Positions 6,149-35,212 of a stretch of DNA of 64,000 nt are shown here, piece by piece; the first letter of the stretch is position 1, and each line of letters starts with the position of its first letter. This DNA comes from Acidimicrobiia bacterium. GTDB taxonomy: Bacteria > Actinomycetota > Acidimicrobiia > Spongiisociales > ZC4RG35. Under the pieces are notes generated by a model. That model made no database searches, was not told the origin of the DNA, and was given only the letters and a program-made list of their open reading frames with translations. The DNA is taken from the NCBI GenBank assembly GCA_965203555.1, contig CBDBCY010000004.1, positions 2,432,001 to 2,496,000 on the forward strand, in the 5' to 3' direction. The translations under genes and the position numbers were made by a program.

Positions 6149-7516
6149 ATGATCCGCAGAGTCCCGGCCAGTCTCTGGTTCAGGCTGGTAGTCGGTTTCG
6201 CGGTGACGCTTTTTGCGACGTTGCTCGGTGTCGGTCTCTACCTGAACCGGGTGGCCACCCGGGAGACAACCCTCTTCGATACGGACACCGGGGAGATCCG
6301 GGCGGCTCGTGTGGAAGAAATCGTGTCCGGGTATCTGCGGGGCCGGTCGGGGCAGGTCCACCTCCAGGACGCCGTGGAGAGCGCCGGCCGGCTGTACGGC
6401 TGGCGGATCGTGGTCCTCAACCGGGACGGGACGCCCTTGGCGGACTCTCACGTCGCGGCGGCCCGGCAGGAGATAGGCGAAACGCCCGGCAGCAGGAACA
6501 TACCCGTCGTGGACGAAGGACGAAAGGTGGCCTCGCTGCTGGTGGAGAGCCTCCCCCAACCCGAGGAAGGAACCGAACCGACCGCTTCCCGGATCGCTGC
6601 CTCCCTGAACCGGTCTCTACTCTACGCAGGTCTGGTCGGCGGCCTGGGCGGTATCGCGCTGGTCGCGCTCGTATCGGGCCGGATGCTCGGACCGGTGCGC
6701 CGGCTGAGCGACGCGGCCCGGCGCCTGGGGCGGGGTGACCTGAACCAACGGGTACCCTCCCCCGGACGAGACGAACTCGGTGAACTGGGGCGAAGCTTCA
6801 ACACGATGGCCTCCCGGCTCCAACGCGCCGAGCAACGGCGCCGCGACCTGATAGCGGACGTGACCCACGAACTGAGAACGCCCCTCTCGAACATCCAGGG
6901 ATACCTGGAAGCGGTGAAGGACGGCCTGATCGAACCCGACCCCGGAACTATCGATACCATCGCCGGCCAGACATCGCTGCTCTCCCGCCTGGTGGAGGAC
7001 CTGAAAGTGCTGGCGCTGGCGGAAACCGGTTCACTGAGGCTGGATCGGCGGCACATGTCGCTCCTGCCGATAGTGCACGCCGCGATCGAGTCATTCGCTC
7101 CCCGCGCGCTGGCGAAGGACATCGAACTGACCATTGAGGCGCCCTCCCACCTGCCGGCGGTCGAGATCGACCCCGAACGTCTCGCCCAGGTAACCGCCAA
7201 CCTGGTCGAGAACGCCATCGTCCAAACACCCGAAGGGGGCACAGTGCGCCTTGTGGTGGAAGCCGGGCCAACCCTGGTCAGGGTCACCGTCGAGGACACC
7301 GGACCCGGTATCCCACCCGACGACCTGAAACGCGTCTTCGACCGCTTCTATCGGGTGGACCCGTCCCGCACCCGGTCGACGGGCGGCGCGGGCCTCGGAC
7401 TCACCGTAGCCAAACAACTCGTCGAAGCCCACGACGGCGCCGTCCAGGCTCGGAGCACCCCCGGAATCGGCAGCCAGTTCACCTACGAACTCCCCGTGGG
7501 TCGACGAGACGCCTGA
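6149..7516 (+). CDS. HAMP-domain sensor histidine kinase (BaeS-like)
   Basis: Two TMs, HAMP, H-box DVTHELRTPL, N-box NLVENAI, DTGPGI, FDRFYRVD.SR, GGAGLGL. Confidence 0.95.
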   Translation: MIRRVPASLWFRLVVGFAVTLFATLLGVGLYLNRVATRETTLFDTDTGEIRAARVEEIVSGYLRGRSGQVHLQDAVESAGRLYGWRIVVLNRDGTPLADSHVAAARQEIGETPGSRNIPVVDEGRKVASLLVESLPQPEEGTEPTASRIAASLNRSLLYAGLVGGLGGIALVALVSGRMLGPVRRLSDAARRLGRGDLNQRVPSPGRDELGELGRSFNTMASRLQRAEQRRRDLIADVTHELRTPLSNIQGYLEAVKDGLIEPDPGTIDTIAGQTSLLSRLVEDLKVLALAETGSLRLDRRHMSLLPIVHAAIESFAPRALAKDIELTIEAPSHLPAVEIDPERLAQVTANLVENAIVQTPEGGTVRLVVEAGPTLVRVTVEDTGPGIPPDDLKRVFDRFYRVDPSRTRSTGGAGLGLTVAKQLVEAHDGAVQARSTPGIGSQFTYELPVGRRDA

Positions 7517-7626
7517 AAGAATGGGCGACGTCGAGGGCACGCGCGCCCATCCGAAGCTCTGGCCTTCCGTTCCTCCCGGACCCGGACTCCTCCCGGTAAC
7601 GGAAAGGCTAGGGGACGCTAAGGTGG

Positions 7627-10524
7627 ATGACAGCATGCATTGCTACGGAGGATGCGGATGAGTGCAAAGGTGAACCAGAGGTAGAGGATTTGGAGAGTGT
7701 AGGGGGTTCGAGTTTTTCAAGGCGGAAGAGGTCAGCGTCCGGGCGGGTGGCGTTCCTGGTGGGTGTCGCGGTGCTGTGCCTGTCGGCGGTTGTGCCTGTC
7801 GGTCTGCAGACACCCGTCCGGGCGTCCGGGGCGGCGGTTCGGGCTGTTACCGGAACGCCGGGCGCCGACGGGGTGGGTGACAGTTTCTTTCCCAAGCTGG
7901 GCAACGGCGGTTATGACGTAGCCCACTACCACATAGATATGGACATCGACATTTCCGACTTTTCGGTGGTGGCGGTCACCACCGTCACCGCCACCGCCAC
8001 CCAGGACCTGTCGGCGTTCAACTTAGACTTCAGCGGCTTGACCGTTAGCGCGGTGACCGTGGACGGCGCCGCGGCCGGGTTCTCCCGCAGCGGCACCGAG
8101 TTGACCGTCACCCCGTCCGCGCCCCTGGCTGATGAGAGCGAGTTCACCGTTGCGGTCAGCTATTCGGGAACGCCTTCTCCGACGCCCGACCCCGCCGCTA
8201 CTCACACCGACGGTGTCGGCTGGCAGACCCGCAGAGGCGCTTCCTATCCCTTGGGGGTTATCTTCGTCGCCAGTCAGCCGTCGGGGGCTATGACTTGGTT
8301 CCCGTGCAACAATCACCCGTCCGACAAGGCGACGTTCGAGTTCGAGATCACGGTTCCCGACACGGTTACGGCGGCTGCCACCGGAGTTCGCGAGAGCGAA
8401 GTCACCGCAGACGGCTTCACCACTTCCGTGTGGAAGATGGAGGATCCCATGGCCACCTACCTGGCGGCGGTGTATGTGGGCGACTTCCTGCGCCAGGAGG
8501 TCCGGGCCGGGGGCGATCCCCTGATTCGCAACTACGTTCACCGCGGCAAGTCGGCGCCGGGACTCTCCGTCGTGTCGGAGGCGCTGGCTCTTTTCGAGGG
8601 GATTCTGGGCGACTTTCCCTTCGACGTCTACGGGGGGATCGTCATGCCCTTCGACCTCGGATACGCCTTGGAGAACCAGACCCTGACTCTTTTCGGCGCC
8701 GATACCGTCGACGACGCTTTTATCGTGGCGCACGAACTGGCGCACGAGTGGTTCGGCAACTCCTCCTCGGTGGGGGACTGGAGCGATATCTGGCTGCACG
8801 AGGGCTTCGCCACATATTTGCACTACACGTACCTGGCCGAAAAACACAGCGTCAGTATGGATTTCTATATGGGCAGGAACAGGAACCTGGCCGTCAGAGC
8901 CAACGCGCAGCCGCCGAAAAAGATCTCCGTCTCCCAGATGTTCAACTGGTTTTCGGTGTATCTTCGCGGCGCTCTCACCTTGCACGCTCTGCACAGGGAG
9001 GTGGGTGACACGGTGTTCTTCCAAGTCCTCAGGGCCACGCACGATCGAACGGCGGGCGGCAACGTCAGCACGGAGAAGTTTCTGGGCATCGTGGAGGAAC
9101 TTGCCGACCGGAAGGCCGTGGCAGTGGTGAACAGTTGGCTCAACAGCGCCGCGGTCCCCAGGCTGAACGAGGCGCCCCGGTTCCCGGCTGCGGAGACGGG
9201 GCGGCGCGGCGTGGCCGAAGGGACCCCGGCGGGACGGGACATCGGAGTTCCCTTCACGGCTGTGGACCCCGACGAGGACGAACTGGTCTACACGGTATCG
9301 GGAAGGGACGCCGACCACTTCGAGTTCGACGCCGCGGCGGGGCAGTTGAGAACCAGGAACCCTCTCGACCACGAGCAGGATGCCAGCTACATGTTCATCG
9401 TCCGGGTCGCCGACCACAGGAACGACAGCAACCAGTACAACACGAGCATCGACGACACGATTACCGTCACCATCGATGTCATCAACGTCGAAGAGCCGGG
9501 TGTCATCGCTCTCTCCACGAAGGAACCGAGAGCGAATACCACCGTCAGAGCCGTCCTCGCCGATCCCGACGGTGGAATCTCGGGAGTCAGATGGAAGTGG
9601 GAGACTTCGGAAGACCCGAACGGGCCCTGGACCGAGATCACCGGCGCCTCCGGTAATGGGCACACACCGGCCGAACAGGATGTCGGCGGCTATCTTCGCG
9701 TGAGCGCCTCCTACACCGACCGGCATGGACCTGACAAGACGGCCGGTCCGGTCGCGAGCAACCGGATACTGCCCGCCAGAACCGGTGGAGGCGGGGGTGG
9801 CGGTAACGGGGGCGGTAACGGGGGTGGTGGTGGCGGTGGTGGCGGTGGCGGTGGTGGTGGTGGTGGCGGTGGTGGCGGTGGAGGCGTCGCCCCTGGAGAG
9901 GGCGGGGAGGAACCGCCGCCTCCCGCGTCGGAACTGTTCACCGACGTGGTCCCAGGGGTGTGGTACGAACCAGCCGTCACATGGATGATTCTCCACGAGA
10001 TCACCTCGGGCTGCGCCTCGGGGATGTTCTGCCCCGAAAGCGAACTTACCCGCCGGCAATTCGTCACATTCCTGTGGAGGGCCGCAGGTCGACCCGCCCC
10101 GACCTACAGAGGATCGGAGGCCTTCGCCGACGTAACAGAAGGCGAGTACGCCGACGAGGCCGTGGGCTGGGCGGTTTCCAACGGAGTCACGGTGGGATGC
10201 ACCGCCGGGAAGTTCGGCGATCCGGACTGGCGGTTCTGCCCCGCGGACCCGGTCACCCGAGGTCAGATGGCGACTCTCCTTTACCGACATGTGGATGCCG
10301 ACTATGAAGGAAGACCCCCTACCTACACGGATGTCGAACCCGGCAGGGTACACACCCGCGGCATCGTCTGGCTGACCGACTTCCAGGTAGTACCCGGGTG
10401 CGGGCCGAACCTGTTCTGCCCCGACCGCCACGCCGCCCGGGCAGAAGCAGCCTTGTTCATCAACGGGGTGGCCATCCGGCCGCACATCTGGGGCGAGGGC
10501 AACACCGCCCTGCTGCCGGACTGA
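7627..10524 (+). CDS. Secreted M1-family metalloaminopeptidase with cadherin-like domain, Gly-rich linker and C-terminal SLH-like domains (start may be downstream)
   Basis: GNGGYDV.HY N-terminus; YALEN; HELAHEWFGN...WLHEGFATY; cadherin-like A.DPD...LDHE...NVEEPG; SLH-like GC...FCP...VTRGQMATLL. Confidence 0.9.
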   Translation: MTACIATEDADECKGEPEVEDLESVGGSSFSRRKRSASGRVAFLVGVAVLCLSAVVPVGLQTPVRASGAAVRAVTGTPGADGVGDSFFPKLGNGGYDVAHYHIDMDIDISDFSVVAVTTVTATATQDLSAFNLDFSGLTVSAVTVDGAAAGFSRSGTELTVTPSAPLADESEFTVAVSYSGTPSPTPDPAATHTDGVGWQTRRGASYPLGVIFVASQPSGAMTWFPCNNHPSDKATFEFEITVPDTVTAAATGVRESEVTADGFTTSVWKMEDPMATYLAAVYVGDFLRQEVRAGGDPLIRNYVHRGKSAPGLSVVSEALALFEGILGDFPFDVYGGIVMPFDLGYALENQTLTLFGADTVDDAFIVAHELAHEWFGNSSSVGDWSDIWLHEGFATYLHYTYLAEKHSVSMDFYMGRNRNLAVRANAQPPKKISVSQMFNWFSVYLRGALTLHALHREVGDTVFFQVLRATHDRTAGGNVSTEKFLGIVEELADRKAVAVVNSWLNSAAVPRLNEAPRFPAAETGRRGVAEGTPAGRDIGVPFTAVDPDEDELVYTVSGRDADHFEFDAAAGQLRTRNPLDHEQDASYMFIVRVADHRNDSNQYNTSIDDTITVTIDVINVEEPGVIALSTKEPRANTTVRAVLADPDGGISGVRWKWETSEDPNGPWTEITGASGNGHTPAEQDVGGYLRVSASYTDRHGPDKTAGPVASNRILPARTGGGGGGGNGGGNGGGGGGGGGGGGGGGGGGGGGGVAPGEGGEEPPPPASELFTDVVPGVWYEPAVTWMILHEITSGCASGMFCPESELTRRQFVTFLWRAAGRPAPTYRGSEAFADVTEGEYADEAVGWAVSNGVTVGCTAGKFGDPDWRFCPADPVTRGQMATLLYRHVDADYEGRPPTYTDVEPGRVHTRGIVWLTDFQVVPGCGPNLFCPDRHAARAEAALFINGVAIRPHIWGEGNTALLPD
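9784..9885 (+). repeat. GGN microsatellite encoding poly-Gly linker
   Basis: (GGT/GGC)n run, ~34 codons. Confidence 0.9.
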
Positions 10525-25111: not shown

Positions 25112-25508
25112 GCCGCAATGGAGGAGGGCCGAATTCGGCCCTCGGAGCCCCGCAGGTGGCGCAAGCCCCGAATGGTGTTCGTGCCGCAATGGAGGAGGGC
25201 CGAATTCGGCCCTCGGAGGGGCTCCCCACTTGAACACATCCTCATCGAGACCGCAGCCGCAATGGAGGAGGGCCGAATTCGGCCCTCGGAGAAGCACATA
25301 CCGACCGGGGGCGCCGAAGGGCGCCCCCGCCGCAATGGAGGAGGGCCGAATTCGGCCCTCGGAGTAGGACTGTCCGAGGTGAAGTGAAAGTGATCACCAT
25401 CGCCGCAATGGAGGAGGGCCGAATTCGGCCCTCGGAGGAGAGTCTGGTGTGGGTGTTGGACCTGGCCAGGCAGCCGCAATGGAGGAGGGCCGAATTCGGC
25501 CCTCGGAG
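25112..25508 (-). CRISPR. Type I-G CRISPR array: 6 identical 36-bp repeats, 5 spacers (35,37,37,37,35 bp)
   Basis: GCCGCAATGGAGGAGGGCCGAATTCGGCCCTCGGAG at 25112, 25183, 25256, 25329, 25402, 25473; minus-strand form CTCCGAGGGCCGAATTCGGCCCTCCTCCATTGCGGC; leader faces cas2. Confidence 0.98.
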
Positions 25509-25982: not shown

Positions 25983-27623
25983 TCACCTCGTCATGAATGG
26001 AACGTATTCGGGTATTTCGCCAAGAAGGTAGGCGCCGAGCATCCTGGCCTGAACTTCGAAGACTCGGCGACAAGTTATCCGGTACTTGTAGGTGGGGTGC
26101 GTCACCTGTTGGTCGAGTCGGCGTTCGTAGGCTTTGATGAAGGTTCTCCGTCCCTGGCTGGTCAGTGCTACACCCTGGGCACGTATGACGAAGCCGCTTC
26201 TTCTTATCTCTTCATTGTTGATGAGGGTCAAGACGACCGATTCGGCAACAAGAGGTCGAAACTCCTCGGCCAAATCAAGCGCTAGGGCTGGCCGACCGAA
26301 TCTGGGACGATGGTAGACGCCGAGATATGGGTCGAAGCCCACTGCGAGGGCTGTGGCTGTGAAGTCTTTGACCAGCATCGAATACCCAAAGGACAGCAGA
26401 CAATTGACAGGATCACGCGGTGGTCGGCGGTTTCGGCTGTGAAAGTCAAAGGTGCCCAAGCTGTCGTTCTTGAGCATCGCGGCAAACCGGGAGAAGTACA
26501 GGCGGGCGGCGGTGCCTTCGATCCCCAGCAGAGATTCGATTGAGGGAGCTGATCTGGCTTGGCCGGCGAGAGTGTTGAGTTGGGCGAGAACGCGATCAAC
26601 ATCTACTCGGGAGTTACGTCGAAGAATTGTACGGGAGTTTCGGATCTTGCCTTCGATCATGCGTTGCGCAATGGGCAGTCCCGCCTGGGAGGCAATGGCT
26701 ACTTGGCGTCGTCGCAGTTCGACGTGTTTCGACGGCAAGCCGTGGGCGATGCCCTGGAACCAGCCTCCCCATGAGAACCAGCAGACCGGCGTTTCTCGCA
26801 TGAAGGCTGCCCGCATGAACTGGGAACTGATCTGGACATTGCCGTAGACCGATACCTGGGAGACATCGATCATGCGGACGGCCTTGATCCGCTCGTAGCT
26901 CTTGGACACCACCGCTCTGCCTCCCCTGATACCGATCCTCGCTCCCTGCTCTGTCACATACAAAGGACGGGCTGAAGGATCGCGGGGAACGAGGCGACGA
27001 GGCCGTTTGGCGGAGCGCTTTGTGTGCAGGTTGGTCTCGTCCGGGAGGCAGATGCCCACCAGCGAACACCTCGGACATTTCGGGCTATCGACCAATGGAG
27101 GTGGAGGTTCGGATTTCGAAGCGACCTGGCGCAACTCCTCGACAAGTTGGAGGGTCTTGGATATGAGTTGGTCATCGAAGGGAATTGTGACTCGCTGACG
27201 GATCTCTGCGAAGTAGATCTCTCCCTCAGAACAGTCGTAACCGTTGTCACGAAGCAAGAGACCGATCGCGCACAACTGAACGAGCTCTGGTGACCATGCG
27301 GGGCCATGCTTGGGCGGTCGACCCCGCTTAACCTCTACAGGAGTCACTTGGCCGTTCCCTCCCTCGATGATGTCTGCTTTGGCGATCAGCCCCAATCTTT
27401 CCGACCCCAACATCACAGACCGGGCCTTGCGCACGGGGTCTTCTTCCTCCGGTCCTGCGATCCGACCTCCCCCTGGATCAACGTTCCGATGCACATAACG
27501 ACCTTCCACCGTGTCGGGGTTGTCCACAAATCGAGACTGGACCCACTCCAAATAGAAAAGCCGCGGACAGTATTCGAACTCGTTGACCATCCGAGCCGGA
27601 ACCAAGGCCGGTACGTCAGACAT
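25983..27623 (-). CDS. cas1: Cas4-Cas1 fusion
   Basis: Cas4 YCPR...PVEVKRG...CPRCSLVGICLP; Cas1 LLGIEGTAARLYF...RRPPRDPVNCLLSFGY...LDLAEEFRP. Confidence 0.95.
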   Translation of the reverse strand: MSDVPALVPARMVNEFEYCPRLFYLEWVQSRFVDNPDTVEGRYVHRNVDPGGGRIAGPEEEDPVRKARSVMLGSERLGLIAKADIIEGGNGQVTPVEVKRGRPPKHGPAWSPELVQLCAIGLLLRDNGYDCSEGEIYFAEIRQRVTIPFDDQLISKTLQLVEELRQVASKSEPPPPLVDSPKCPRCSLVGICLPDETNLHTKRSAKRPRRLVPRDPSARPLYVTEQGARIGIRGGRAVVSKSYERIKAVRMIDVSQVSVYGNVQISSQFMRAAFMRETPVCWFSWGGWFQGIAHGLPSKHVELRRRQVAIASQAGLPIAQRMIEGKIRNSRTILRRNSRVDVDRVLAQLNTLAGQARSAPSIESLLGIEGTAARLYFSRFAAMLKNDSLGTFDFHSRNRRPPRDPVNCLLSFGYSMLVKDFTATALAVGFDPYLGVYHRPRFGRPALALDLAEEFRPLVAESVVLTLINNEEIRRSGFVIRAQGVALTSQGRRTFIKAYERRLDQQVTHPTYKYRITCRRVFEVQARMLGAYLLGEIPEYVPFMTR

Positions 27624-27648
27624 GGTCGTTTATGTTATGACCAGGGTA

Positions 27649-29049
27649 TCAATCAGGTCTGAACAAACCCAGACCGAAATGTGATAGATGCCCCAGTGCC
27701 AGAGGGCCCTCAATGGGACGGTTGAAGACGAGACGAAGTGATCTCGCTGGCCGCGGTCGGCTGGAATAACCTCCTTGTGGACGGGCCCGCCGGAATCTGC
27801 GCCATTCTGGTCTTTTCAATTCTTGGAAGCGGATGGGTTCGGGATATCCCCGATATCCGAGTTCCCGCTTCAAGTCAGAAGTCAAGTGAGCCTTCCTCTT
27901 CTCGTCATCCATCCATTTGGCGCACGACTTTCCGGGAATGTATGGGGTTTGCGACGCCCAGACATCCGATATACCTGTGAATTCGGGAAGGGCCAACTGC
28001 GTTGAAGCAAGTACCTCCAAGCCCAGCCGATATGTGCCGAGCCGACGCAAATGTTCTGGAGCGGACAGTCGACGAAGGCGGGTGACTCCGGCGATTTCTC
28101 GTTCCCCGAGGCCTCCGGGAGCCCAGATGGCCAGGGTGTCGATGCGTCCGTCGTTGGTGGATGAGAATGCAAGGTAGTGCGCGTGCTGGTGTTGGTCATC
28201 GCGAGGTCCTGTTTCCGTTCGACCAGATAGGACATCGGATGGTTCCTTCGTCCGACTAATGACCGCTTGGCGAAGAAGGTGGCATACGGCCACGGTTTCC
28301 GCAACCGGCGGCCTCCCGGTGTCGGGGAGGTGCCAGCGAGCAGCTGTGATTGCAGAGCGTGGTCTTGGTGTAGAGGTTCTTGGTGGTGAGGAACGGCTGT
28401 CAGCGATTGTGTACTGGACCCAACGAGTCTTGGCTGGGTCTTGATGCCTTGACTTCCGGAGTTCGGTTGGACTTTGGCACAAATCCGCAAAGGAGAAGGT
28501 TGGTGTGGGGACCAAGAGACGCAGGACTTCGCCCTCCGCCCTGCCAGGGAAGCAACGAATGGATGCGGATTCGTTCTCGTAGCCATTCTCGAGCAGTCGG
28601 GCGTGGCAAACAGAATCAGCTCGGCCGAGATAAGGTATGGCGCTGACCAGGGTGGAAAGCAATCCACGGTCTTCTTGGTTGACAACATTGGCGAACTCGA
28701 CGATCAGGTCTTGGTCAGGGTGGATAGAAAGGAACGGGTCAAGGGCAAGAGATCGGTTCTTGCCGGGATTGTTCATGCCGTGCTTGTAACTTGGCATGTA
28801 GTGGCGCGTGTGCGCCGATCCTGCTGGAGGTAGCCAATACGCGGGAGGCTCGGCCATCAGGCGGTTCAGCAAATCCATTACACGGCTTTCCTCCAGGCAC
28901 CACAGCCGGGTCTTCCAAACAGAAACAATGGCCCTGAGAATTCGCCAAGGCGACGGCGGCCATTCGACCCTGCCCTCGTTTACGCTGGCGTCCCAAGGCG
29001 TGGCGTGATAGCGGCCCAGCGGAAAACGAAGGGCCACCCGGGTTGTCAT
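27649..29049 (-). CDS. csb2: Type I-G Csb2 (Cas5/Cas6 fusion)
   Basis: GRYHATPW...EWPPSPWRILRA; YLGRADS; Cas6 G-rich loop GPLALGHLSHFGLGLF. Confidence 0.92.
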   Translation of the reverse strand: MTTRVALRFPLGRYHATPWDASVNEGRVEWPPSPWRILRAIVSVWKTRLWCLEESRVMDLLNRLMAEPPAYWLPPAGSAHTRHYMPSYKHGMNNPGKNRSLALDPFLSIHPDQDLIVEFANVVNQEDRGLLSTLVSAIPYLGRADSVCHARLLENGYENESASIRCFPGRAEGEVLRLLVPTPTFSFADLCQSPTELRKSRHQDPAKTRWVQYTIADSRSSPPRTSTPRPRSAITAARWHLPDTGRPPVAETVAVCHLLRQAVISRTKEPSDVLSGRTETGPRDDQHQHAHYLAFSSTNDGRIDTLAIWAPGGLGEREIAGVTRLRRLSAPEHLRRLGTYRLGLEVLASTQLALPEFTGISDVWASQTPYIPGKSCAKWMDDEKRKAHLTSDLKRELGYRGYPEPIRFQELKRPEWRRFRRARPQGGYSSRPRPARSLRLVFNRPIEGPLALGHLSHFGLGLFRPD

Positions 29050-29993
29050 GCTCTACCCTTCGGGTTCCATACCACCTCAGTGACGGTTTCGGTATCGCGC
29101 AGTTCTCGGCACTCTTCTGCTAGGTGGGCAATCTTTTCTGCCAGCCGAGATGGGTTTGACAGGGATTCAGGCAGATCGCTCTCCACACTGAAAGAGCAGG
29201 CGGTACGCAGTCGCATCTGTTCAGATGCCAGGCTCGCCAGTTCCCATCTTGCCACGGTTTCGAGTATCTCGACCGCTGTAGCGCTTAATCCATAAGATGC
29301 CAGCAGACCGATGTCCAGTGCTGTGCGTAGCCAGATCCTGGCTGCCGTGTACTCGACGCGGTGAAACGGCACCATTCCATATCCCTCAGCCGCACCTCCC
29401 GTAGTCCCGGTCACCTTATGCCTGACATCGTCGGTTTTGACTCCCCCGGAGTGAGCCTCCCGGACATCCTCGGCCTCGATAAAGGCAGTAGTCGCTCTTG
29501 CAATCTTTGGCTGATGGGGCCACTTTCCGACCGCGAAGAAGACCCCGTGGATAAGGTTGAGTGGGTCGAGTCGAAAGATGGTCCGGGCAACTCGACTGGT
29601 GTCAACCGGTCGGTCTTGAACGAGTCCGAAGTCCTCCTCGAGGACTTTGAGAAAGTCCTTCGAGCCCTTCTTGGAGTTGCGGATAAAGGCGGAAGCGAGA
29701 CGATGGGCTTCGGTCCGGCTCGAAGTCAGATACTCACCGCTGTCGTTGACGACTCTCACCCACGGAAGCCCCGCGAGTTGTTCTACAGGATGATTGTCGA
29801 GGTCATTCCAACCCTGCGCTTCCAAGTGATTGGCCATCGACTGTGCGGATTCGACCAACAGCATCTTGGTGGTCTGCCCGTTAGGTCTTGGCTGGTCGTA
29901 CAGAGCCGCTCCCAGATCGGGGAACCCGGTCGGTTGGAAACGTCCGCTTGGCTCGGAACGAAGCGACAGATGGTGTATCTCCTGTTGTGTCAT
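29046..29993 (-). CDS. csb1: Type I-G Csb1/Cas7g
   Basis: RFQPTGFPDLG, LLVESAQSMANHLE, EAHRLAS, GYGMVPF, LRTAC; ATG 29993 overlaps csx17 stop. Confidence 0.93.
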   Translation of the reverse strand: MTQQEIHHLSLRSEPSGRFQPTGFPDLGAALYDQPRPNGQTTKMLLVESAQSMANHLEAQGWNDLDNHPVEQLAGLPWVRVVNDSGEYLTSSRTEAHRLASAFIRNSKKGSKDFLKVLEEDFGLVQDRPVDTSRVARTIFRLDPLNLIHGVFFAVGKWPHQPKIARATTAFIEAEDVREAHSGGVKTDDVRHKVTGTTGGAAEGYGMVPFHRVEYTAARIWLRTALDIGLLASYGLSATAVEILETVARWELASLASEQMRLRTACSFSVESDLPESLSNPSRLAEKIAHLAEECRELRDTETVTEVVWNPKGRA

Positions 29994-32224
29994 TTTGTTT
30001 CTCCTTCGGATGGACGTGGGGGACAAACGTTCCTGATAGCGTGTTCAACGGTGCGGGGAGAGATGGGAATCAATAGAGAGGCGAGAAGCCTGTCGGGCGA
30101 AGGGACACGAATGAATCTGGGTCGCACCGCAGGACTGAATCCTGCCGCCCGTAGCCGAACGATCGCCTCTCGCAGCACGGCTTGGACGTTCCCTGCTCGT
30201 AGTTTTTGTGGCCAGGTGAGCGAAGGAAGCAGATAGCGTTTTTCTTGCTCACCGGTATCTTCGCTGGGGACCTTGACAGGCCGTGCGTGGTAGAAGGGTG
30301 CCAGCAGCGCTCTCGCAACTGAGATGTCCCTTGGCTGATCCCCTGGATCGGCTTTGAAGGATGGGGGATATGCCAGCAGAGAGGCCACAGAAAGAAGTCG
30401 CCGGAGTCGCCGGCCGTCCAGAGGGTTGTTGAGGAAGGCCGACAGGTCAGCCGGGCCTAGCGGTCCTGCGTGGTCGAAGGCCACCAGCGATCCAGACCCC
30501 ACTGCAGGAGCATCCTCTTGGGGCTGGCGGGTCCGAGAGAGCATAGAGCGTGTAACGACTGCGGCTGCTAAGCCCTCAATTACGGTCCTTGACCCAAGAT
30601 AGTCGGGAGGTCGGTCAGCCCATTCGGGAGGCTTCCATGGATCCTTATGAAGCTTGACCGGCCGGAGCAATGCGCTAGCGGATCCGCTTCGCTGCTCGGG
30701 CTCCGTCAGCCTTCTTCCCCCTGGTGGGCGGTCGGCTTGAGTAGCGATTGCCGCCGCCAGTCGCCACTCGAAAGTATTGTCTTCCAGCGCCTCGGCCCAT
30801 CGTCCTGTGTCAAGCGGTGGCAGGGGAAACCCAACACCCTCTCGCAGGTCGGGATTGCGACTGATGGTCTGTTCCAAGGAGGCGAGTTCTGTTAGGAATT
30901 CTTGTAGCGGTTCAGGTCTGTCAGGTTTACGAACAACCTCCATCTGGGCGGCGTCGATACGGCGCAGTGCGGATCTTGCAGCGCCGGGCGGGGACTGTCT
31001 GCGGACACGATTCACCCAGTGATCAGTTTCTCCAAGAAGGCTGACGCGGTCTGCTGGCTGAGCGGCAACGTCAAAAGTACCAACCGGGACTGCGAGTGGC
31101 GACTGCCCAAAGCGTTCGGCGATGACGTATCTCTCGAAGCTGCCTAGTCCCCGGTCAACACCGAGAGTGGTCAAAGCCTTGGCAGCATCCAAGCCATGGG
31201 CCGCATGTCTTCCGTTCCACGAGATCCGCCCTTCTGCGATCACGCGGCGCAATTCCGGTACTGTGAGAGGGCGTTTCCAAAGTGGCGCCCAGAACTCACC
31301 TTTCACGTTCTCGCCTTCGGCGGACGTGTAACCCGCCGGACTACTCGGTACGGTGAACGGGGTGGTAGCCATCCCGCGGGAGCCGCCGAACCTGCGTGCT
31401 ATTCCGGAAGTGAACAGCAAAGTTCCTTCTAAGCCCAAAACGAAACTCCACAAGTTCTCCACGCTCTCAGCACTTCCGAAGGCGGAGGAGTTCATGGTTC
31501 CTGCGGCTCCTGGTGAAAACTGTCCCACTGGCTTTTTATCCAACCGGGGATGACCTTCGTCAAACAGGGAGTGGCTGAGCAGTTTTGCGCTCCGTTTTCG
31601 ATGCCTCGGGTCTAGTAGAAAGGAAAGGGCCTCCATGTAGTTTGTTGCGAGATCCAGCCTTCCGAGATTTCCGCCGGTCCCCAGCAACAGCGGGTATTGA
31701 GGTTTCTTCTCGTCGGCGATCACCACAGTTGCATCTAACCAATCGAGCGCCTCGTCAGGAAAGAGAGATCGACATCGAGCAAGGAAGGTGCTCTTGTCAA
31801 CTTTGAGAATGTATTTGTCATTCTTTCCGACTTGCTTCTCCCACCGCTCCTCGATCCATCCCGATGCCATTCCTTCACCCCACGCACGCCGTGCCTCTTC
31901 TATCGCGAACCGGAATGGTGCAAATCGAGAGCTGTCGTTTGATTCGATCTTGGCAACGGCCCTTTCGCCCTTTTCACACTTCAAAGTTCTGAAACCACCG
32001 CCGCCGTTCCAAGGTGAGAGCATCGGTGTAGGTTTATAGCTTTCCAGGAAGAATCCCTGTATGGCGTCGCGGGCTAGGTCACTGTTGATGTGGAGAGTGG
32101 AGTCCTTCCAAAAAGACAAAAGCTCAGACGAGCATTGCTTATGGAGAATGCTCAGAATCCCTAATCCTCGTAGGTATGAGAGCAAGGGAGTAGAACGACA
32201 ACCGGTCAAGGCGATGAGACTCAA
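29990..32224 (-). CDS. csx17: Type I-G large subunit Csx17/Cas8g
   Basis: LTGC..PL.SYL, PWNGGGGF, LLGTGGNLGRLD, GEFWAPLW, RGLGSFERY. Confidence 0.9.
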   Translation of the reverse strand: MSLIALTGCRSTPLLSYLRGLGILSILHKQCSSELLSFWKDSTLHINSDLARDAIQGFFLESYKPTPMLSPWNGGGGFRTLKCEKGERAVAKIESNDSSRFAPFRFAIEEARRAWGEGMASGWIEERWEKQVGKNDKYILKVDKSTFLARCRSLFPDEALDWLDATVVIADEKKPQYPLLLGTGGNLGRLDLATNYMEALSFLLDPRHRKRSAKLLSHSLFDEGHPRLDKKPVGQFSPGAAGTMNSSAFGSAESVENLWSFVLGLEGTLLFTSGIARRFGGSRGMATTPFTVPSSPAGYTSAEGENVKGEFWAPLWKRPLTVPELRRVIAEGRISWNGRHAAHGLDAAKALTTLGVDRGLGSFERYVIAERFGQSPLAVPVGTFDVAAQPADRVSLLGETDHWVNRVRRQSPPGAARSALRRIDAAQMEVVRKPDRPEPLQEFLTELASLEQTISRNPDLREGVGFPLPPLDTGRWAEALEDNTFEWRLAAAIATQADRPPGGRRLTEPEQRSGSASALLRPVKLHKDPWKPPEWADRPPDYLGSRTVIEGLAAAVVTRSMLSRTRQPQEDAPAVGSGSLVAFDHAGPLGPADLSAFLNNPLDGRRLRRLLSVASLLAYPPSFKADPGDQPRDISVARALLAPFYHARPVKVPSEDTGEQEKRYLLPSLTWPQKLRAGNVQAVLREAIVRLRAAGFSPAVRPRFIRVPSPDRLLASLLIPISPRTVEHAIRNVCPPRPSEGETK

Positions 32225-34614
32225 GACAGTGCCCTCCCCGGGTTAGCACTGGCTCGCCAATCGGCCATCCTCACCAGCATCTCCAGAAATGCCAGACGGA
32301 AGGGTCCCAGATCGGACCGATCGCGGAGTGTGAGCATCCGAGCGGTGTAACTGGGGGCAAGACCATCGCCGTTGCCCAAGCCTACGTCTGCGAGACAAAC
32401 CTCGCCCCCGCGGGTCTTCCCGCCGGGTATCTCCACGGCTGGCACGTAGTCGCCATCCACCACCCCGAGCGCGATGTCTCGGGCTCTCTTGTTCGGCGGG
32501 GGCCGTTCGTCTTCCAATCGACGGACCCCCAACCGGACTCGGCCATGGTGTCCTGCTGCTAAGAAAACCACTAGGTCAGGTTCAGCTACGTCTTCAAGAA
32601 GGAATCGTTCGGGGCCAAGCAGCATCAAGGCGGAGACAAGACCGTGCCGGAAGTGTCTCTGGGAGTATCTCAAGGTCCGTTTGTTTCCTCCTTTGGCGAG
32701 CACCGCTTCCTCCTCCGGGAGAGGATCAGAGTCTGCCCGTGTCTTCCTGATAGCGTCTTGGAAAACTTGATGTGCCTTGCCGAGGTCGTGATATCTGGCA
32801 GCCAACCGTGCCGCCTGAACGGCATTGGTAGGTACGTCAAGGGATCCGAATTCGTCTATTATTTCTACGAAGGATGATTCGGTGTCCGCCAAATGATCCC
32901 GGAGTGTCAACCACGGGACTCGGGAGAAGGCGCTTGCCGGATCATCGCCTATAGCCGAATCATGCTGATCGGCCAACACTTTATCGCCGGAGACCGGCGT
33001 AACAGGTTTGGAGGAACGGTCCCAGCCCAGTTCGGATCCATAACCGCCGGTGGCTACGTCAAGGACAACCGTCAAATTAGGTCGTATGTCACGGGCCAAG
33101 ATTTGCGACCAGCGGCGTTCGCCCCGGGCTAGCGGATCTGCTACAAAGGCACGCGCTTTTTTATTGCTGACGAATCTCCGTAACTCTCCTATAGGTACAC
33201 GGCAGATCTCTGTGGCGGAGGGTCCGGTATCAGGCGACGGATGGTTGTCGTCGGTGACCGTGCGCCAGAGCACCATCACGTCACGATCAGCGGTGTCGCG
33301 AATGAACCGCCCGACGTCAATGTCGTTGCCGGTCAGGTCTGGCAAGGTGTCGAACAACTCAACAAGGTCACGTCTGCGGAGAGTGGGAACCGGATCGAGG
33401 TTCGTTTGGACAGTCTTTGCCGACAGCGATGTCGGTGTAACCGTGTCTGGGAGGCTGGTCAGCACTCTCTCGGCAGTGTCGAGTTCATCTTGGTTGTAGG
33501 GATGAGCAGTCTTAGGTCGCATCCACAACATCTGGGCGTCCACTGTTTCGCCTGTTCTGTTGCAGCGTCCCGCTCTTTGCACGAGGGATGACCAAGGCGC
33601 CAGATCGGTGAGGAGGGTTGCAGATGAGATGTCCAGGCCGGCTTCCACGACCTGGGTGGCAATCACAATGCGTCCCGATAATGGGATATCAGCCAGGATC
33701 CGGCTTAGCGCAGCTTGGCGGTCTCCTTGGCGAAATCGTGAATGAATCAGTACCACCTCAGCGTCTGTCTTCATTCTCCTGAGTGCCTTATAAGAGTCCT
33801 GTGCGCGCCTCACATTGTTCGCAACCACCAGTGTCAAAGTGTCGGGTCGGTGATTGTCATAGGCGAGGCGGGCTACATCTATAGGTTTTGGTGCGTGTCC
33901 AACATCTCGGATTTGACGCGGCGCGTCAGATCGTTTGGTCAATGTCTCCCAGGAGCGATCCTCTTCGCCGAGTTCCACAATGCGGCCTACCTCCGGTGCA
34001 TCAACGGTCTTAAGCGCATTGAAGTTCACTGTTGCCGACATCCACATGGTGCTCGTGGGCTGAGCGGTGCCGAAGATCTCGCGAAAGGCTTGAATTTGAC
34101 GCCCGGTCGACACGGCTGCATCCATCAGTTGGATCTCATCGAATACCCACTGGCACCCGGAGTTGAAGGCGCCGAAAGAGATGGGCCAATTCCATCGGTT
34201 GTCTGCGAATCCGCGGTTGAGAGCCCGTGAGAGAAGCATGTCCATCGTGCCTATGAACACGGCATCACGCTCTGGATTGAGTCTCCACTCTTGATCACTC
34301 CAGGCGGCTCCGCCCATCACGCGGTGGACTCCCAGTTCTTCCTGGCCGAGACCAAGGGCTTCCCGCCACTTGACGAACCGATTGAAGGTTTGGTCGACAA
34401 GTGTGCGCATGGGAAGGGCGTAAACCAGCCATCTAGGGGTTGTCCCCCGGGCGGCGTGCCTCCGGAGCCACAGCCAACTAAGCCCCGCGGCTTCCGTTTT
34501 CCCACATCCCGTATCCACTCGCAACACTTCGGGCAATCCTTCGTGGGCGAGACGCGATTGGTAGGGATAGGGATTGTGGCTTGTCGCCTGCCGGAAAAAA
34601 CCGCTGAAATCCAT
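32221..34614 (-). CDS. cas3: Type I-G Cas3 (helicase with C-terminal HD nuclease)
   Basis: PYPYQ, TGCGKT, DEIQ, SAT, QRAGRCNR; C-terminal H...YHDLGKAH...HH...ADWRAS. Confidence 0.95.
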   Translation of the reverse strand: MDFSGFFRQATSHNPYPYQSRLAHEGLPEVLRVDTGCGKTEAAGLSWLWLRRHAARGTTPRWLVYALPMRTLVDQTFNRFVKWREALGLGQEELGVHRVMGGAAWSDQEWRLNPERDAVFIGTMDMLLSRALNRGFADNRWNWPISFGAFNSGCQWVFDEIQLMDAAVSTGRQIQAFREIFGTAQPTSTMWMSATVNFNALKTVDAPEVGRIVELGEEDRSWETLTKRSDAPRQIRDVGHAPKPIDVARLAYDNHRPDTLTLVVANNVRRAQDSYKALRRMKTDAEVVLIHSRFRQGDRQAALSRILADIPLSGRIVIATQVVEAGLDISSATLLTDLAPWSSLVQRAGRCNRTGETVDAQMLWMRPKTAHPYNQDELDTAERVLTSLPDTVTPTSLSAKTVQTNLDPVPTLRRRDLVELFDTLPDLTGNDIDVGRFIRDTADRDVMVLWRTVTDDNHPSPDTGPSATEICRVPIGELRRFVSNKKARAFVADPLARGERRWSQILARDIRPNLTVVLDVATGGYGSELGWDRSSKPVTPVSGDKVLADQHDSAIGDDPASAFSRVPWLTLRDHLADTESSFVEIIDEFGSLDVPTNAVQAARLAARYHDLGKAHQVFQDAIRKTRADSDPLPEEEAVLAKGGNKRTLRYSQRHFRHGLVSALMLLGPERFLLEDVAEPDLVVFLAAGHHGRVRLGVRRLEDERPPPNKRARDIALGVVDGDYVPAVEIPGGKTRGGEVCLADVGLGNGDGLAPSYTARMLTLRDRSDLGPFRLAFLEMLVRMADWRASANPGRALS

Positions 34615-34901
34615 TACTTACCTCCACCAGTGGGAGCAAGGCCCACTTTCTTAGGGACGGGTGTCGTTGGATAGCATCTTCGGGTACGCATTTCTGTCGT
34701 TGGCTTAGTGTAGATAGAGGGGTGTGACACCTTGCCATTGGCGTTTTTAGTTGGAGGTCTCTGACTGAAGCAGATAGAGCACATGGGGACATTCCCGCTG
34801 CCCCAAGCGTCAACGGGTTCTCCTTTGGTCTTGTGAGCGCGCCATTCCCAATAGTCATGTTGCTTTCCTCCAGCGATGATCCACGGTGTGATGAGACCCA
34901 T
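34614..34901 (-). CDS. Unknown 95-aa protein translationally coupled to cas3 (candidate CRISPR-repressed toxin or accessory factor)
   Basis: ATG 9 nt after TATAAT; stop overlaps cas3 start (GGAGGTAAG-TAA-TG); contains CSIC and further His/Cys residues. Confidence 0.55.
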   Translation of the reverse strand: MGLITPWIIAGGKQHDYWEWRAHKTKGEPVDAWGSGNVPMCSICFSQRPPTKNANGKVSHPSIYTKPTTEMRTRRCYPTTPVPKKVGLAPTGGGK

Positions 34902-34910
34902 GTCGCCTTG

Positions 34911-34940
34911 ATTATAGGCACTCTGGTCCCATACAGCCAA
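34911..34940 (-). promoter_or_regulatory. Sigma70-type promoter of ORF95-cas operon (TTGGCT-18-TATAAT), overlapped by mini-array target
   Basis: -10 TATAAT at 34916-34911, -35 TTGGCT at 34940-34935; protospacer-like site 34947-34930 with TTG PAM 34950-34948. Confidence 0.7.
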
Positions 34941-34965
34941 CTATCAGCAACTGTACTCACGGGAA

Positions 34966-35059
34966 GCCAAAAGAGGCAGGACCTGGCGAGGGTCCCGGCA
35001 GGTTGAGCATACATCCAGCTATCAGGCCGCAATGGAGGCCAGGTCCCGCCTTGTCGGAG
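34966..35059 (-). CRISPR. Degenerate CRISPR mini-array (crRNA-like regulatory RNA): psiR1 35026-35059, 24-nt spacer 35002-35025, psiR2 34966-35001
   Basis: psiR1 keeps CTCCGA start and CCTCCATTGCGGC 3' end incl. 8-nt handle; psiR2 is 36 nt with compensated stem GGACC/GGTCC; spacer matches adjacent promoter. Confidence 0.8.
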
Positions 35060-35212
35060 GATACCGCAATTGCCACTTGACAAGTGTCAGGACAGGGAGA
35101 AGCGTGTTGCCTCAGCCTGGAGGCCTTTTGGCAGGTCCAACGCGCACCACCCCGACATTCATCTGCGGGGGAGGGGGAGATTGGTGTGGTGTATTGTTCG
35201 GCGCAAAGCATT

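Follow-up and report, generated by a model that had tools for sequence, protein, structure and literature searches.

A putative CreR-type regulatory mini-array ahead of a type I-G cas operon in an Acidimicrobiia bacterium

The type I-G locus and its upstream mini-array

The window, as the whole stretch of 64,000 nucleotides (nt) analysed here is called, belongs to contig CBDBCY010000004.1 of an Acidimicrobiia bacterium and harbours a type I-G operon of a CRISPR-Cas system. NCBIfam models identified Cas3g (TIGR02621, 689 bits), Csx17/Cas8g1 (TIGR04113, 488 bits), Csb1/Cas7g (TIGR02570, 88 bits) and Csb2, a Cas5-Cas6 fusion (TIGR02165, 189 bits), all above the curated cut-offs, and Pfam placed the Cas4 and Cas1 domains within one open reading frame (ORF). 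The operon is headed by a small ORF, named here ORF95. Directly upstream of it, and apart from the main CRISPR array, lies a degenerate repeat-spacer-repeat (35059-34966), which is the mini-array considered in this work. An initial annotation of the window, made by a model from the letters alone, had described this element as a hidden mini-array whose spacer targets the promoter of the cas operon. Every base quoted in it was recovered on the minus strand between 34400 and 35300, together with the coordinates of both pseudo-repeats (psiR1 and psiR2), the spacer, the TTG protospacer adjacent motif (PAM) and the target (Table 1).

Table 1. Features of the type I-G locus and of the mini-array in the window
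Feature	Position	Strand	Basis or remark
-10-like box TATCCT, putative promoter of the mini-array	35058-35063	-	TANNNT 19-21 nt before CTCC in 7/7 loci
psiR1	35059-35026	-	sequence check
armX, 14-nt 5' strand of the conserved helix	35038-35051	-	inverted repeat, 93% complementary
CTCC linker and 8-nt 5' handle ATTGCGGC	35026-35037	-	same as 3' end of the CRISPR repeat
24-nt pseudo-spacer	35025-35002	-	positions 1-18 (35025-35008) match the target
psiR2	34966-35001	-	local 7-bp hairpin 34997-34977, armY 34987-34974, U-rich tail
TTG PAM (34950-34948) and 18-nt target (34947-34930)	34930-34950	-	overlaps the -35 box
Promoter TTGGCT-18-TATAAT of the small ORF-cas operon	34911-34940	-	10/12 consensus positions
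ORF95, small conserved protein, 95 codons	34614-34901	-	translation; homologues in relatives
Type I-G genes: cas3g 32221-34614, csx17 29990-32224, csb1 29046-30026, csb2 27649-29049, cas4-cas1 25983-27623	25983-34614	-	Pfam, NCBIfam
Main CRISPR array, 6 repeats and 5 spacers of 35-37 nt	25112-25508	-	repeat search

The repeat of the main array is a 36-mer, CTCCGAGGGCCGAATTCGGCCCTCCTCCATTGCGGC, whose six identical copies all end in CTCCATTGCGGC. An exact copy of this 12-nt end stands isolated in the mini-array, 9.5 kb from the main array, with 12 out of 12 bases identical. When one mismatch was allowed, the last 13 nt of the repeat matched seven sites in the window, namely the six array repeats and positions 35026-35038. 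The expected number was 0.19, and none of 100 shuffles reached seven. Outside the handle, psiR1 and psiR2 are strongly degenerate. The initial annotation was right that psiR1 keeps the end of the repeat with its handle. It had also taken the CTCCGA at the 5' end of psiR1 for a repeat remnant, a reading that is not required, since CTCCGA overlaps the conserved -10-like box. The occurrence of this TANNNT box across the seven loci counted in Table 1 was tallied by hand on the locus listing; with such spacing a transcript would begin at the first arm of the helix described below. Immediately ahead of the -10-like box, at 35064-35073, stands a second word that partly resembles the handle, AATTGCGG, which may be the remnant of a further decayed repeat or a chance occurrence.

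Match between the spacer and the promoter

The first 18 nt of the spacer are identical at 16 out of 18 positions to the target 78 nt downstream, with mismatches at positions 8 and 12, and no identity between spacer and target was found at positions 19-24. In the window, the 18-nt spacer/target word has exactly two occurrences (0.01 expected), and three out of 5000 shuffled spacers matched as well as the spacer of the window. In the genome of 3,417,261 bases, the TTG-flanked site is the only one within two mismatches of the first 18 nt of the spacer; the next-best site has three mismatches and an ACC flank. A scan of viral contigs with the handle and the start of the spacer gave 0 matches.

The target covers the -35 box (TTGGCT) of the promoter, as had been proposed, and this promoter is the sole sigma-70-like match between 34500 and 35700. 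Nine nt separate the end of TATAAT from the ATG at 34901, and a gap of this length suggests a leaderless-type start for the ORF95 transcript.

Conservation of the module in other type I-G loci

Six further type I-G loci share the module. Five of them (L034 and L079-L082) were found through the small ORF, and the sixth, L092, through a covariance model built from six elements. A Cas3 scan of species genomes yielded three loci at 65-67% identity in Acidimicrobiia metagenome-assembled genomes (MAGs). In locus L034, CTCCATTGCGGC is present without a mismatch, and the spacer after it resembles a site with a TTC flank ahead of an ORF95 homologue. Loci L079-L082 encode a Cas3 only about 28% identical to that of the window, and their genes are arranged as small ORF, csb1, csb2, cas3g, a Cas3-extension protein, cas4-cas1, cas2 and array. 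In all four the element lies about 125-140 nt upstream of the small ORF. Loci with this second gene order and the csx17-type locus of the window have the regulatory module in common. The second order was also seen in L083 (6752-7678, genome G556) and equivalents, where it includes a protein of the 'Cas3-extension family' (NF049934); tblastn with the protein of the window could not detect csx17 in loci of this order. In L092 the module stands ahead of csb1 in a locus without the small ORF, which is the first gene in six out of the seven module loci.

Spacer-promoter complementarity, for which the initial annotation had pointed to homologous loci, is present in all seven loci and co-varies. In a test of six loci, each spacer was identical to its own target at 15-20 out of 24 positions. 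Identity across loci was 10-14 out of 24, except between the close kin L080/L081 and L079/L082 (16-18). Shuffled spacers reached the observed value in 0 out of 5000 trials in four loci and in 52 out of 5000 in L034. In an 18-nt version of the test with seven loci, the spacer of L034 fits the target of L092 (15) better than its own (13), because L034 and L092 are kin. Changes on both sides between loci are found at several positions, for example position 1 (C:C in the window, T:T in L034) and position 13 (C:C in L080, T:T in L081).

The manner of the match is conserved as well. Identity begins at the first base after the handle in seven out of seven loci, CTCC is invariant in all seven, and the handle is exact in six. 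The three bases before the target are TTG, TTC, TTC, AAC, TTA, TTC and TTC, that is, TTN in six out of seven. Within positions 1-18, eleven of the twenty-two mismatches in six loci fall at positions 6, 12 or 18, against 3.7 expected (binomial p = 3e-4, a value that overstates the evidence because the loci are related). With L092 added, our own tally is 14 out of 27. A start at the handle, a TTN flank and mismatches at every sixth position are signatures expected of a type I effector. The proposal of a CRISPR RNA (crRNA)-like mini-array that addresses the promoter of the small ORF and cas3 hence gains support from the six further loci, their PAM and the periodicity of their mismatches.

A conserved helix across the handle and the spacer

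A helix joins the 3' part of psiR1 (armX) to the 3' part of psiR2 (armY). Its sequence is unlike that of the repeat hairpin, and armX sits where the 3' arm of the repeat hairpin would be. In all loci the first arm ends exactly at CTCC and the second starts about 38-42 nt after the handle (hand count). The initial annotation had instead described a local GGACC/GGTCC stem within psiR2. This stem exists and scores as a terminator-like match, and local hairpins of its type were found in three out of seven loci (the window, L034 and L092); the conserved pairing is the one between the two pseudo-repeats. The local hairpin might form after cleavage and leave a guide of 24 nt.

In both the window and L034, the fold of minimum energy pairs armX with armY. 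The armX of the window forms a duplex of -30.8 kcal/mol with its own partner, against -11.1 to -21.1 kcal/mol with the partners of other loci, and the mean over the loci is -27.2 kcal/mol for own partners and -15.8 kcal/mol across loci. These energies are a control independent of alignment. For the covariation analysis a model-based realignment was used, as MAFFT had set the right arm of L034 one column out of register. In this alignment 87% of cells are paired, and eight out of thirteen pairs are changed on both sides. The covariation score is 0.549, which none of 500 shuffles reached, and registers slid along the alignment scored 0.13-0.24.

The covariance model also matches ordinary repeat-spacer-repeat units of real arrays, at 14-34 bits. 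Such matches begin in the 3' half of a repeat and finish in the 5' half of the repeat that follows, so that the first arm corresponds to the 3' arm of the former and the second to the 5' arm of the latter. The element can therefore be understood as a repeat-spacer-repeat unit whose outer halves have decayed and whose inner halves have been kept complementary.

A functionless relic, left by the end of an old array or by a spacer that targeted its own genome, would also be degenerate outside the handle, as psiR1 and psiR2 are, and would be lost in some relatives, as this element was. Neutral decay does not account for the handle, CTCC, the -10-like box, the spacing and both pairings being kept in seven loci, in two gene-order variants and beside a Cas3 only about 28% identical, nor for compensatory changes that preserve both pairings. 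We consider a relic very improbable.

Equally improbable is that a DNA-binding protein, such as the small ORF product regulating itself, uses the two 18-nt copies as operators, and that the repeat-like flank is a decayed remnant without RNA function. The copies are direct repeats beside a promoter, L034 bears a third, tandem copy of the spacer/target motif, and the first gene encodes a possible zinc-binding protein. However, operator sites do not predict identity that starts exactly after a crRNA handle in seven out of seven loci, a TTN flank restricted to the other copy in six out of seven, mismatches at every sixth position, or a co-varying helix at the canonical spacer distance. Moreover, L092 retains both copies without the ORF.

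ORF95, the first gene under the targeted promoter

In the window, and likewise in L034, L036 and L079-L082, a gene of the ORF95 family heads the type I-G operon. The stop codon of ORF95 overlaps the ATG of cas3, and the same overlap is present in L036. The residues Met1, Gly2, Leu3, Gly12, His15, Tyr17, Trp20, His23, Trp33, Pro39, Cys41 and Cys44 are invariant in the family, and this His-His-Cys-Cys pattern suggests zinc binding. A profile of the first 50 residues of ORF95 detected only eight clusters among 1.84 billion representative proteins. The family is real but rare. In the family to which the genome of L034 belongs, the ORF profile search was positive in seven out of twenty-nine genomes, one of these matches being a remnant in locus L035.

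No Pfam family was assigned to ORF95. In the predicted structure the N-terminal 50 residues have a predicted local distance difference test (pLDDT) score of about 73-91, and the remainder is poor. No PDB fold was matched, the single Foldseek match having E 4.4, and the protein atlas gave scores of at most 0.77. A word-based protein search with ORF95 gave nothing, and a search with the single protein in the family of the window gave nothing credible (14 matches at E 2.7e-4 or worse, 10 of them with internal stops). A word TGTCACA, shared upstream of cas3 by the window, L035, L036 and G002, a genome of the same genus, was considered as a regulatory site and rejected. It is most simply a conserved C-terminal coding part of the small ORF, a reading made by eye for which tblastn gave no support in G002.

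In CreTA systems, Cascade is directed by a crRNA-like RNA to the promoter of an adjacent small gene that encodes a toxin. Similarly, the promoter of an adjacent small gene appears to be targeted here by a crRNA-like RNA, whereas this gene is co-transcribed with the cas genes and shows no similarity to toxins. An addiction or anti-anti-CRISPR module of the CreTA kind would make the His-His-Cys-Cys protein a toxin held off by Cascade, so that loss or inhibition of Cascade would release a growth-arresting protein instead of, or besides, more Cas proteins. Such a module shares the RNA-guided repression with the reading that we prefer, and differs only in the role of the first regulated gene. The position of the target on the small-ORF promoter fits it, the small ORF being the first gene in six of the seven loci, and in L034 module and ORF persist although insertion elements sever them from cas3. 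Protein toxins repressed by CRISPR effectors have also been reported (10.1101/2024.01.05.574328). Nevertheless, ORF95 resembles no toxin or other family, the ORF is translationally coupled to cas3 by the stop/start overlap in the window and in L036, and L092 has the module without the ORF. Locus L036 has the ORF without the mini-array, which would be harmful were the ORF a toxin. On balance, a toxin role is rather unlikely, though less so than operator sites or a relic.

Proposed mechanism and points that weigh against it

Our preferred reading, with a probability of about 0.8, is that the mini-array specifies a Cascade-guiding regulatory RNA aimed at the promoter of its own operon. It is very probably a CreR-type regulatory mini-array of the type I-G system, and would act as a self-repression switch. 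We infer that it is transcribed and processed, and that Cascade binds the promoter without cutting by Cas3 and represses the operon. A search of sequencing runs listed no RNA run that contains the locus.

A short RNA would be transcribed from its own -10 box and would consist of an arm of 13-15 nt, CUCC, the 8-nt handle AUUGCGGC, a pseudo-spacer of about 40 nt and the second arm, which would pair with the first. Since Csb2 cuts 4 nt after the hairpin base in type I-G systems and CTCC is invariant, the helix could offer Csb2 the same local geometry. By mimicking the repeat hairpin in this way, helix and CUCC could lead Csb2 to cut before the handle and to stay bound at the 3' side. Cas7 and Cas8g would then load on the RNA, and the first 15-24 nt of the spacer would pair with the TTN-flanked site on the -35 region just downstream. 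As this pairing would fall short of a full R-loop, Cas3 would not be licensed, and the complex would repress the small ORF-cas operon. Where Cascade is lost, titrated or inhibited, the operon would be de-repressed.

A more tentative reading, which we hold to be doubtful as a whole, joins two proposals. The first is a split hairpin, in which one helix would serve both as the Csb2 cleavage signal before the handle and as the 3' helix held by Csb2 in the finished complex, and would yield a full-length Cascade on a guide that pairs only via its first 15-24 nt. The second is that the co-regulated His-His-Cys-Cys mini-protein could be a new Cas-associated factor.

Several observations weigh against the self-repression switch. 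The mismatch at position 8 in the window lies in the presumed seed, as do those at positions 3 and 8 in L080 and L081 and at position 5 in L034. Locus L079 has an AAC flank, and its handle differs from that of the window at two out of eight positions. In L034, transposase and integrase genes (rve, HTH_Tnp_1, HTH_38; 7136-9833) lie between the regulated small ORF and cas3, and therefore the mini-array would no longer directly control cas3 there. Locus L036 keeps the small ORF directly before cas3 and the promoter region, and the mini-array was not found in it even with an unfiltered model search. Nor was it found in G002, which has a near-identical repeat and, at 64% identity, the nearest Cas3 in the genus of the window. 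Since L036 and G002 are without the mini-array, the circuit is, judging from these genomes, dispensable. When 297 distinct spacers from 13 arrays were compared with the genome of the window, no protospacer was found, only partial matches of 20-26 nt, and the TTN PAM is taken from other type I-G systems. Regarding the helix, psiR1 has no hairpin of its own, cutting by Csb2 at a bipartite helix is a step that we infer, and the covariation alignment, which comprises seven partly related loci only, was fitted to the model and leans towards structure.

Comparison with known systems and significance

Among type I subtypes, type I-G has to our knowledge received the least study, and we know of no regulatory crRNA-like RNA that has been tested in it.

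Regulatory RNAs of the CreR type have been shown experimentally to repress cas promoters in I-B, I-E and V-A systems, and for I-U, as I-G was formerly called, CreR-like elements were reported to have been identified by hand (Liu et al., 10.1101/2023.03.10.532045; the latter in Figure S7). Similar to these, the element of the window is a degenerate repeat-spacer-repeat beside cas genes, has a psiR1 with the 8-nt 5' handle, and carries a spacer that partly matches a PAM-flanked site in a cas promoter, with no obvious toxin partner. Autorepression of Cas, relieved when the effector is titrated or inhibited, is predicted in both cases. Unlike them, it belongs to a type I-G system, its outer pseudo-repeat halves are gone, and the inner halves pair across handle and spacer. 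In addition, its regulated transcript begins with a conserved small protein gene, and the circuit is here a prediction from sequence.

Shmakov et al. (PMC10120712) tabulated 235 type I-G loci, a fraction of 0.04 of them with a mini-array, given as a count only. Their mini-arrays also lie near cas3, have targets with the cognate PAM in promoters, and tolerate mismatches at positions 6 and 12. The I-F1 mini-array was validated experimentally, a shortened match leading to repression without cutting (PMC10120712). The I-F1 arrays are flanked by cas3 and cas8 and point away from cas3, whereas the mini-array of the window is upstream of the operon on the same strand. With I-U elements and an I-G count (4% of 235) already published, the novelty implied by the initial annotation is lower than it appeared. 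Neither a helix between the repeats nor a conserved mini-protein gene at the head of the regulated transcript is known to us from these two 2023 papers.

In the type I-G system of Thioalkalivibrio sulfidiphilus, the PAM is TTN, every sixth base is flipped out, and Csb2 cuts 4 nt 3' of the hairpin base, leaving an 8-nt handle (PMC9638904). The predicted RNA of the window resembles that crRNA in the 8-nt handle, the 4-nt gap between helix and cleavage site, a helix about 40 nt after the handle, the six-base periodicity and the TTN PAM. In the crRNA of T. sulfidiphilus the hairpin lies within one repeat, whereas here two strands flanking the guide form the helix, and the target is matched by no more than 15-24 of about 36-40 guide positions.

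The seven natural variants, with matched changes in spacer and promoter, are directly usable in reporter assays. They suggest what the I-G effector tolerates, that is, a mismatch at every sixth position, an apparently accepted partial match of 15-24 nt, and a TTN flank. The bipartite helix is a possible substrate for defining what Csb2 recognises, and a rare conserved zinc-finger-like mini-protein is tied to control of the cas operon. If the circuit works as in I-B, I-E and V-A systems, production of Cas proteins would rise when an anti-CRISPR blocks Cascade.

Distribution of the element and neighbouring observations

When 201 genomes of the family of the window were searched at the DNA level, only the window and a weak match of 35 nt (G156, E 1.8e-4) were recovered. 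Among 401 sampled genomes of the class, nothing came up beyond the own genome of the window and one weak match, and an order-level sample of 151 genomes gave no further member. With the small-ORF alignment, 117 stretches of metagenomes were matched, but not one was confirmed. A Cas3-alignment scan of metagenomes yielded 32 type I-G loci, none with the small ORF or the element, and no same-strand handle was found within 1.5 kb upstream. Two handle matches with one mismatch, located where cas3 starts in L071 and L075, are probably due to chance. No match was found in Rfam at E up to 1.

At locus L035 a tRNA junction takes the place of the 5' part of the ORF and of all sequence upstream; a tRNA gene abuts the 5'-truncated remnant of the small ORF before cas3 (9480-9760). 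This type I-G locus seems to be at a tRNA-linked junction. The genome of L035 holds a second I-G locus, L092, which retains the mini-array. The main array of the window has only five spacers, and G002, with its nearly identical repeat and without a mini-array, possesses about 100 (L032, 11689-18929).

Beyond a weak element in L038, from a MAG titled Propionibacterium, a model scan of 41 sources detected no other upstream element. In L038, a separate type I-G mini-array (7686-7846) lies on the strand opposite to cas3, which is located at 8938 and is 36% identical to that of the window. Its word CTCAATTGAGGC matches 11 out of 12 positions of the repeat end of its own locus, G/C-rich arms enclose the handle and a spacer of about 40 nt, and on the cas3 strand, about 80 nt away, a TTG-flanked site agrees with the spacer at 16 out of 18 positions. 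The target precedes a Cys/His-rich ORF of 64 codons unrelated to ORF95, and a RelE/ParE-like pair is found between that ORF and cas3. Since L038 is unrelated and shows the same layout in opposite orientation, this layout may be a general design of type I-G regulatory RNAs.

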